Origin: Balanoglossus misakiensis
Taxonomy: Eukaryota; Animalia; Hemichordata
Reading direction: 5' to 3'
DNA: 64,000 nucleotides
NCBI GenBank assembly: GCA_040954595.2
Contig: CM082582.2
Location: 7,566,063 to 7,630,062 of the forward strand
Shown: one piece after another, positions 26-3,000 of the stretch
Layout of the letters: each line of letters starts with the position of its first letter
Position numbering within the stretch: position 1 is the first letter of the stretch
Translations under genes and position numbers: made by a program
Notes under the pieces: generated by a model
Databases searched by the model: none
What the model saw: the letters and a program-made list of their open reading frames with translations, nothing else
Told to the model about the DNA's origin: nothing

Positions 26-3000
26 AAAAGTACGGATGCTCCATCGATTCTCTTGCCGTCAATCTTTCTTGATGATCATACCGCAGGAGCTTATCCAAGA
101 AATCTAATGCTTCGGGGCTGACCAGGTGTTGATTCTCGCTGTGGACAAACCTCTCCCAGCGTTTCTTTGAATGTCTGAGTAAGGACAGTGGAGACGGCAA
201 ATGTGAATGGTAAGGCTATAGAAAATTCGCTGAATGAAATACTATGCCTCTAAACCAGGAAAACTTTGCACCCAATTAAAATATTCACATTTGCTTGAAT
301 AATCTATCCCGTGTACCATTTGCAGTTGAGGCAGAACGTAAACTGAGTGTCGCAACAGAACAGTGGGAACTTACAAGATGCGAAGGCACATCTTACCTTC
401 CTAAGATATCATTAAATCTTGGATCAAGTTCTATTTGGTATTTTTCAATGTAATCATACAGTTCATCCGTTCCTAAGACTCTTGCAATGCGGACCAACTG
501 AAAAATGACAAACATACAGTGTAACATGCTCAATTACTACCATCCATGTGATGTCAAACTGGTTTCGTCTTCTCGATGGTATATAGGATGAGTGGGTAAA
601 ATTACAACTACAAAAGAAAATTGTGTATTATGCATCACATTTCTGTAATTAAACTTTCAGTCTGTATTCACGCCAATTGTCAGATACACAGGAAAATGGG
701 GAAGGCAGTCATGAGATCACCGACTTACCTGGTCATAGTTGTCATGTCCGTGAAAGAAAGGTTCTTTTCTGAATATCATACTGGCTAACATGCATCCCAA
801 ACTCCACATGTCCAGGGAATAATCGTACAACTATGAAAGAAACAAAAGCATTCAATATGAGTAAATTTCGATTTCCCCCTTGTTTTTTGTACATGCTTGT
901 AACATCCCAGGTTCCAAGAACTGTGCCTCATAATAAGGTCTGGTTGGGAAAAAATTAGCAAAGTAATTAGTAAATTCTTTACCTGATAGTCTACTAGTAG
1001 TTCCGGTCCTTTAAAATATCTTGACGCCACCCTGACATTGTACTCTTGACCTGGATGGTAGAATTCCGCTAAACCCCAGTCTATGAGTCTCAACTGGTAA
1101 AAGAACAAGAGACAGGAAAGGAATACAACTTAAAACGAAGAATCTTGTATATCAAATACAGCACTGGATTTAAAACCTGGCTGTGTTTGGTATAGTCAAC
1201 TTTCCCTAGTGTCTTACTACGGGTTCAGTCAGAAAAGGGGTGGGGGTGGGAGGGGGTGGTGGGGAGACTGAGTCTACAAAGAGTTACGGGAGCCTAGATA
1301 GATAATACAGATCAGATGTATTACAAGTGTGGAAATAATGATACCTTATATATCATGAGAAGCAAAGGTTTCCTTAAGACTTACAGTAGAATTAGTATAA
1401 TGATTGCGAGATTGGATGTTTTTTAAGATATGATTTGTCATGTTTCAGATTTTTTTTGCCTCTTACAGCTCAGCATTTTGTTATATGCGTTATGAAGCTA
1501 TGTCCGATGAACACTCATGACCATCTTTATTTGACTGATAAGAAGGGACTAGAGTCTTAACAACAAACAGAAATTGGTTAACCTGTGACTGAGAAACCAG
1601 ATCTGGTTCAGGTGAAATGCAAAGCTCGTTTAATTTAACGCTCGCACGTTCATTGTTTACCATACTTTGACACAGGAGTTAACAGTGACAAAACAGGATT
1701 TTTTTTTTCAACATCTAACACCAGATTTCATATACGATGTGAGGTGGAGATAGTCCTTTTTCCCATAAACCCACACGTTTTGTGCAGTAATGAAAAAAAA
1801 ATGAGATGAAAAAGGTTCAGAGATACGAAAGGTGCTGGAGAGATATATAGGAATTTAATTGAAAGAAAGATTTGAAGGTGAGAGATATGGCAGATGAAAT
1901 TAGAAATGAGGTAGAACACCATGGCCAGCCATATATCCTCGTACCTTCCTGTTTTCATGGTCTATCATAACGTTGTGAGGTTTAACATCTCTGTGCATGA
2001 TACCATTACTATGACAGTAATCCAGGGCCTGAAAATACATAAAACGTCAGACTGTTTTAGTTATTCTTAAAAAGTAGGTCACATGTAACGGCGTACCTTT
2101 CTGTTCTCATGGTCTATCATAACATTTTGAGGTTTTACATCTCTGTGCGTAATACCCATGCTATGACAGTAATCCAATGCCTGAAAGTAAAAAACAAAAG
2201 CACAAATTATGTGAAATAAACATATTCAGCTACGGGCAAAAGTCTGCCTGGGCTGGGATGAGGAAATTGCGAGCTGATGCTGCAGGTGCAAAAGTGAATG
2301 AAAAACCAAGAAAGAGAAACAGCAAAGCCTGGAGATTTCCCAGTGTCTGGAAAAAACAAACATGAAAGCGACATAATACATGCTTCAGCACTGCTAAGAG
2401 TGGCTGTGGGTTATTGACAGTGTGCCCTCTAAGCCCATAATGATACGCCACTGACTCAAGAAAATCATCCACAATACATGCAAAGGTATAGGGCTGCTGA
2501 CTCGAACCTTTGTAAAAAGTTTGTTAGAGGGCACACTGGTTATTGACAAGACTGGCAGGCAATTGTTCGCCGACATACCGATGCAAGTTGAAAATTACAG
2601 GTCATTGCAATACAGTGAAGGCTGCTTGTTAGAGTCACACCGCAAACAGCACTCCCGCATGCATGCTCAAGTAGTCCATTAGTAGAAAATTGCCGTCTAC
2701 CCTCGATCTCTGGACAAGGACAAGCTTCAGTGCATGCAATATTGCCGGTTCCTTGAGACGCTTTGAAACGATTCAGCATACATTAAGCACAACTCGCAAA
2801 AAAGCACACAAATTATAATTTTCTGAACGCTGACAAGTTAAAAGTCGACATTTAATCAAGGTAGCAAATTATCTAAATTACGAATTGACCTAACAAGCAG
2901 TCCACACTGTCATGAAAAATAACCTGCAAGGACTACTAACCTTTAGCAGTTCAAACATGTAGAAACGTATATCATAGTCCGTTAGAGTCTGATACAACTG

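Follow-up and report, generated by a model that had tools for sequence, protein, structure and literature searches.

Does a single acorn-worm gene produce two versions of the kinase CK2-alpha by splicing in one or the other of two adjacent catalytic-loop exons, and would the resulting enzymes differ? CK2-alpha is highly conserved, and variety in its catalytic subunit comes mostly via paralogues. In the stretch of 64 kb analysed here (the window), however, the CK2-alpha gene carries two tandem 84-nt phase-0 exons, termed 6A and 6B, that encode the same segment of the protein (Table 1). A first-pass annotation had called both exons with intact AG/GT sites, and their coordinates and translations were reproduced in our analysis. 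Papers are cited below by PMC number.

Table 1. Features of the CK2-alpha locus, in window positions
Feature	Position	Strand	Remarks
CK2-alpha gene	25..5128	-	10 coding exon slots; 3' end beyond window edge
Coding exons 1-4	5125-5037, 3785-3674, 3549-3448, 3274-3224	-	hand-placed
Exon 5, constitutive, upstream of pair	2941..3000	-	60 nt, phase 0; hand-placed
Intron 5	2181..2940	-	sense-biased long stem, five GCATG, MITE-like insert; candidate control region
Long imperfect stem	2930-2886 paired with 2636-2590	-	begins ~10 nt past exon-5 donor
MITE-like element	2418..2538	.	121 nt; perfect 15-nt terminal inverted repeats; 8-nt flanking direct repeat
Exon 6A	2097..2180	-	84 nt, phase 0; human residues 143-170; M150, T153, Q160
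Intron between 6A and 6B	2029..2096	-	68 nt; stop codon met if retained
Predicted branch point CTGAC	2046..2050	-	motif scan only; A at 2047
Exon 6B	1945..2028	-	84 nt, phase 0; human residues 143-170; N150, M153, H160
Exon 7, constitutive, downstream of pair	983..1093	-	111 nt, phase 0; DWG motif; hand-placed
Coding exons after exon 7	830-729, 497-397, 174-25	-	hand-placed

With either 6A or 6B alone, the reading frame is open over 319 codons, and 297 of the 319 residues are identical to those of stored protein P0078, whose cluster includes an Apostichopus CK2-alpha. The best 60 matches in the PDB are all CK2-alpha. The adjacent exons are homologous, as evident by their equal length and phase and by identity at 25 of 28 residues, and each has TTTCAG directly upstream and GTACG directly downstream. 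They account for the only two HRDxKPxN motifs in a six-frame translation of the window and constitute the top direct repeat between positions 1093 and 2941 (113 nt, 83%, spacing 152). An assembly artefact, in which two alleles or paralogues were set in tandem, would also place two such copies side by side. We consider this scarcely credible, given that the repeat extends no farther than the exon plus a few bases of the splice sites, with unrelated sequence on its flanks, that the differences cluster at silent sites, and that the window contains no N. The catalytic-loop exon is an old unit, because the human splice variant c.426+1 marks the same 5' exon boundary (PMC9608649) and because many genomic fragments recovered in our searches resemble this exon with an intron on either side.

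Several other features of the window were recorded. CK2-alpha (start at 5128) and CFAP263 (CCDC113; 6864-9806) are head-to-head neighbours, and the CFAP263 product is 88.5% identical to that of Glandiceps talaboti, 85.5% to that of Ptychodera flava, 82.6% to that of Saccoglossus kowalevskii and 73.4% to that of Patiria miniata. These identities make an enteropneust hemichordate the likely source of the window. The two genes have consecutive numbers in Sinanodonta woodiana (ACJMK2_010781 and 010782), which suggests that their linkage is old. Farther along, ~6 kb of a CACCA-type simple repeat (33400-39500) with an extreme strand skew gives rise to spurious long ORFs, and an open frame of 491 codons on the minus strand (62526-63998), resembling the extracellular part of a receptor, runs past the window edge.

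The two copies of the catalytic-loop exon differ at 12 of 84 nucleotides, which alter eight codons silently and three with a change of amino acid, in agreement with the earlier description of mostly synonymous differences plus three substitutions. By the Nei-Gojobori method, there are 8 differences over 15.4 silent sites and 4 over 68.6 replacement sites, yielding a dS of ~0.88, a dN of 0.061 and a dN/dS of 0.069 (Fisher p 5.2e-5), an estimate limited by the small number of silent sites and to which a recent loss of selection is invisible. Beyond the splice signals, the intron flanks of 6A and 6B show no likeness above shuffled sequences (52% and 93% of 500 shuffles were equal or better). Because silent differences are in excess and the flanks have diverged, both copies appear to be maintained by purifying selection at the protein level, as the first-pass annotation had proposed, and a recent relaxation is compatible with these data. 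Gene conversion was rejected as the source of their similarity, since the silent differences span codons 1 to 27.

We also simulated the evolution of a pair in which one exon copy was neutral from the outset. Among 60,000 runs, 3,568 reached at least seven silent codon differences, and three or fewer amino-acid changes were seen in 55 of these. The corresponding figures were 10 of 3,052 for settings of at least 0.2 substitutions per site per branch and 45 of 516 for the two lowest settings (0.1-0.15). From these sequence comparisons, we regard 6A and 6B as a real, old and selected exon pair.

Both copies have splice sites typical of this gene. Their donors are ordinary GT sites that each match the consensus at 7 of 9 positions, pyrimidines occupy 16 of the 20 positions before the 6A acceptor and 14 of the 20 before that of 6B, and the scores fall inside the range of the constitutive CK2-alpha sites. 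The intron that separates them is the shortest of 16 measured in CK2-alpha and its neighbour gene, the next being 124 nt. Steric interference with splicing is described for donor-to-branch distances below ~50 nt (PMC5740500; PMC7969005). The predicted branch-point A lies 18 nt from the 6B acceptor and 50 nt from the 6A donor, a distance that sits exactly on this threshold, which was measured in vertebrates, and that depends on a motif-predicted branch point. Because a 68-nt intron leaves only these 50 nt, exclusion is probably steric, and such a lock, borderline as it is, is the mechanism that we prefer. Frame-shift decay cannot enforce exclusion, because 84 is divisible by three and the reading frame is kept when 6A and 6B are joined and when both are skipped; this mechanism was ruled out. 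A search for docking-site/selector RNA pairing, in which the long introns were matched with the four splice regions, gave nothing above shuffles in 8 of 8 comparisons.

The fact that the joined and skipped forms are both in frame lends itself to another explanation, in which the copies are not strictly exclusive and CK2 is damped by inactive subunits that carry A+B (28 extra residues) or that lack both exons and thus the catalytic Asp. The borderline donor-to-branch distance would accommodate joint inclusion, and introns of 68 nt can be spliced in many invertebrates. Nevertheless, a kinase core containing the segment twice would be unlikely to fold, and this scheme leaves unexplained why both copies retain all catalytic residues. 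We therefore judge it to be very unlikely, and consider it likely that 6A and 6B are both used in a mutually exclusive manner.

The pair had been described earlier as a swap of the catalytic loop, which overstates the difference. The catalytic residues H154-R155-D156, K158 and N161 are identical in 6A and 6B, and human CK2-alpha variants H160A and H160F are folded and retain 75% and 67% of activity, respectively (PMC10794401). Because the catalytic residues are unchanged and human H160A keeps this much activity, the effect of exon choice is probably one of fine-tuning.

To place the three differing residues, we counted them in 444 CK2 segments (68 distinct sequences), 364 of them taken from stored proteins and 80 from loci. 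At position 150, M is present in 360 segments and N in 25, all 25 of which are metagenome loci retrieved with 6B as the lead query. Position 153 is M in 429 and T in 13, and position 160 is H in 437 and Q in 4. Hence the His of KPHN (His160) is near-invariant, and the first-pass annotation was correct in calling it characteristic of CK2. It overlooked, however, that 6B is also derived (N150); neither exon has the common M/M/H combination. In the CK2-alpha cluster containing P0026, P0386-P0393 and P0020, T153 accompanies H160 in full-length proteins, and therefore T153 alone exists naturally. In a published alignment, Q160 is present in NP_014704.1, XP_455820.1 and NP_984300.1 (PMC9608649, supplement file 1, part 1/2). 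The 150-species alignment of PMC9608649 may bear on the rarity of both Q160 and T153.

In human CK2-alpha, His160 is exposed, touches the acidic P-3 residue of the substrate and forms a bond with Arg47 of the Gly-rich loop in its collapsed state, and Met153 is buried close to Arg155 (PMC9608649). Residue 160 is affected in Okur-Chung syndrome, with H160R recurrent in 4 patients, and M153R is reported in 1 (PMC9608649). The H160A change abolishes the pH dependence of binding for one anionic inhibitor (PMC10794401). By comparison with these human residues, 6B, with H160 and M153, would specify a near-standard enzyme. Inclusion of 6A would replace the exposed His160, the residue of the P-3 and Arg47 contacts, with an uncharged Gln and the buried Met153 with Thr. 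The 6A form is predicted to be active with an altered substrate contact, and we lean towards the two products also differing measurably.

The same residues can be read in favor of an account in which exclusive use is granted and the biochemistry of the two products is near-identical, the pair persisting because some cells splice in 6A and others 6B, so that loss of either copy is prevented. Agreement at all but three residues, including every catalytic one, the activity left in the human H160A and H160F proteins (PMC10794401), and the variability of positions 150 and 153 among natural CK2s would all be expected if this were so. However, the conservation of H160 and the recurrence of H160R in patients (PMC9608649) indicate that residue 160 matters in cells, and we find this account rather unlikely.

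A further possibility is that 6B is now constitutive, whereas 6A, long functional, has recently fallen into disuse and is starting to decay. Its changes are at the better conserved positions (153 and 160), the 70 nt next to its acceptor contain no YTRAY branch motif, our searches recovered no A-type protein or motif elsewhere, and dN/dS is blind to so recent a loss. Yet the splice sites of 6A equal those of 6B, and its sequence is free of stops and indels. Moreover, T153 and Q160 are both residues present in natural CK2-alphas, an outcome with a probability of 0.8-3.7% for two random changes, although this figure is biased low because the motif filter fixes 12 columns. Decay of 6A is quite unlikely in our estimation. 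Instead, the reading that we favor, albeit with considerable reservation, is that tandem catalytic-loop exons are alternatively included to give two active kinases with a modest difference in substrate contact.

According to this reading, the catalytic-loop exon is duplicated in tandem, and splicing would take 6A or 6B, with joint use prevented sterically by a 6A donor that is too near the predicted 6B branch point. The choice between the copies might be governed from intron 5, upstream of 6A. This intron folds better than its shuffles (z -3.5, and z -2.8 in a repeat in which 1 of 20 shuffles was equally good), with z values of 0.5, -1.4 and -0.1 for control pieces in the same test. Its long stem gives z -4.5, a value that is optimistic because the interval was picked after the repeat was seen, and reaches -115 kcal/mol in the sense orientation versus -82 in the antisense. 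The fold signal of the intron is owed partly to this stem and partly to the MITE-like insert. Rfam returned no match for window positions 1-6000 at E up to 1, and therefore known RNA families do not account for the intron-5 stems. There is no second full copy of the insert in the window; by the 8-nt flanking-repeat rule, the element is presumably hAT-like. Elsewhere in the gene, an AT-rich part of intron 1 (4701-4850, minus strand) is likewise more stably folded than shuffled sequence (z -3.5, 1 of 32 scanned segments), and this signal probably reflects TA repeats.

Intron 5 also contains five copies of GCATG, which we take to be an RBFOX-type motif, where 1.44 are expected (P 0.008 before correction for 10 introns). 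One of the five is inside the MITE-like insert, and the two introns that follow intron 5 have zero. That these motifs and the long stem set the exon choice is speculative.

No exon of the 6A or 6B type was found among 367 CK2 motifs from 575 stored proteins. Protein searches with 6A as the query likewise returned no 6A- or 6B-type CK2 among the matches listed (the best 120 of 332, 13 of 13 and the best 150 of 2,539), where a B-type representative would rank under ordinary M/M/H proteins and possibly outside these matches. In two CK2 proteins, P0139 and P0140, the match fell on two separate stretches; these were rejected as multi-exon repeats in plant-like models rather than tandem exons. Among the listed cluster members of 30 proteins (15 rows each for large clusters), no named hemichordate CK2-alpha appeared. 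A scan of metagenome contigs for the 6A-specific motif gave 0 matches, and a second catalytic-loop exon copy was present in 0 of 80 metagenome loci, only 7 of which show introns on both sides of the exon. These 80 loci were kept from 540 in a scan of 32 of the collection's 64 parts, and none is recognisably hemichordate. The absences among stored proteins and metagenome loci say little about acorn worms. A literature search, with most subscription papers outside its scope, found no report of a duplicated CK2-alpha catalytic-loop exon; one supplement file of PMC9741552 has 0 occurrences of CSNK2A, and Drosophila CK2 is described as having only one alpha isoform (PMC5374408). Hemichordate isoforms with either copy of the exon may already be catalogued in gene-annotation databases.

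A splice switch of three residues would provide a natural, otherwise identical pair of proteins for probing the roles of His160 and Met153. More tentatively, and with doubt outweighing expectation, tissue-regulated exon choice could exchange His160 for Gln within one gene and so switch the substrate preference of the constitutively active, essential CK2. If true, CK2 would gain a form of control not known for it, along with a natural test of the Okur-Chung residue, and one acorn-worm gene would reproduce internally the division between His and Gln at which budding yeasts arrived through gene duplication. Any effect could be small, and the pair could be restricted to one lineage.

Gln160 in a natural CK2-alpha is also found in KPQN-type budding-yeast proteins, namely NP_014704.1, which we take to be yeast Cka2, and XP_455820.1 and NP_984300.1, presumably of the Cka2 type. 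The first-pass annotation had named yeast Cka2 as a KPQN protein, and the motif is indeed present in all three aligned sequences. In these yeasts, separate genes have diverged over their full length and M153 is kept, whereas 6A combines Q160 with T153 in an otherwise identical chain. The analogy drawn earlier with alpha/alpha' paralogues fits budding yeast but not vertebrates, in which alpha' retains His160.

Exon swaps in kinases are already known, and the CK2-alpha catalytic-loop pair is likely to be new among them. MAPK14 has an annotated MXE pair of 80 nt (PMC5740500 and PMC9741552, supplements), and pairs are also reported for CAMK2D and for FYN (FynB/FynT) (PMC9741552). All three resemble the present case in having a homologous exon pair inside the kinase domain, theirs being used one per transcript to tune binding or substrate choice. 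However, FYN varies the SH2-kinase linker and the start of the ATP-binding region, and MAPK14 varies a helical segment through frame-shifting 80-nt exons, whereas the CK2-alpha pair comprises frame-neutral HRD-loop exons with a presumed exclusivity. If the reading proposed here is true, the HRD exon joins the kinase segments that are varied through exon duplication. The human gene CSNK2A1 has a candidate of its own, hsapMXE24871667, predicted as an alternative to an internal phase-0 exon (PMC5740500). That candidate is intronic, shows weak similarity and concerns a 51-nt exon (corresponding to window 3274-3224) rather than the catalytic-loop exon (PMC5740500). With regard to mechanism, the closest parallel is with OGDH exons 4a and 4b, for which a donor-to-branch distance near or under 50 nt excludes joint use (PMC7969005). 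In OGDH the intron is longer, and the distant branch points used there have been mapped to 25-46 nt from the donor, whereas CK2-alpha would achieve the same spacing with a short intron and a predicted branch point at an ordinary position.
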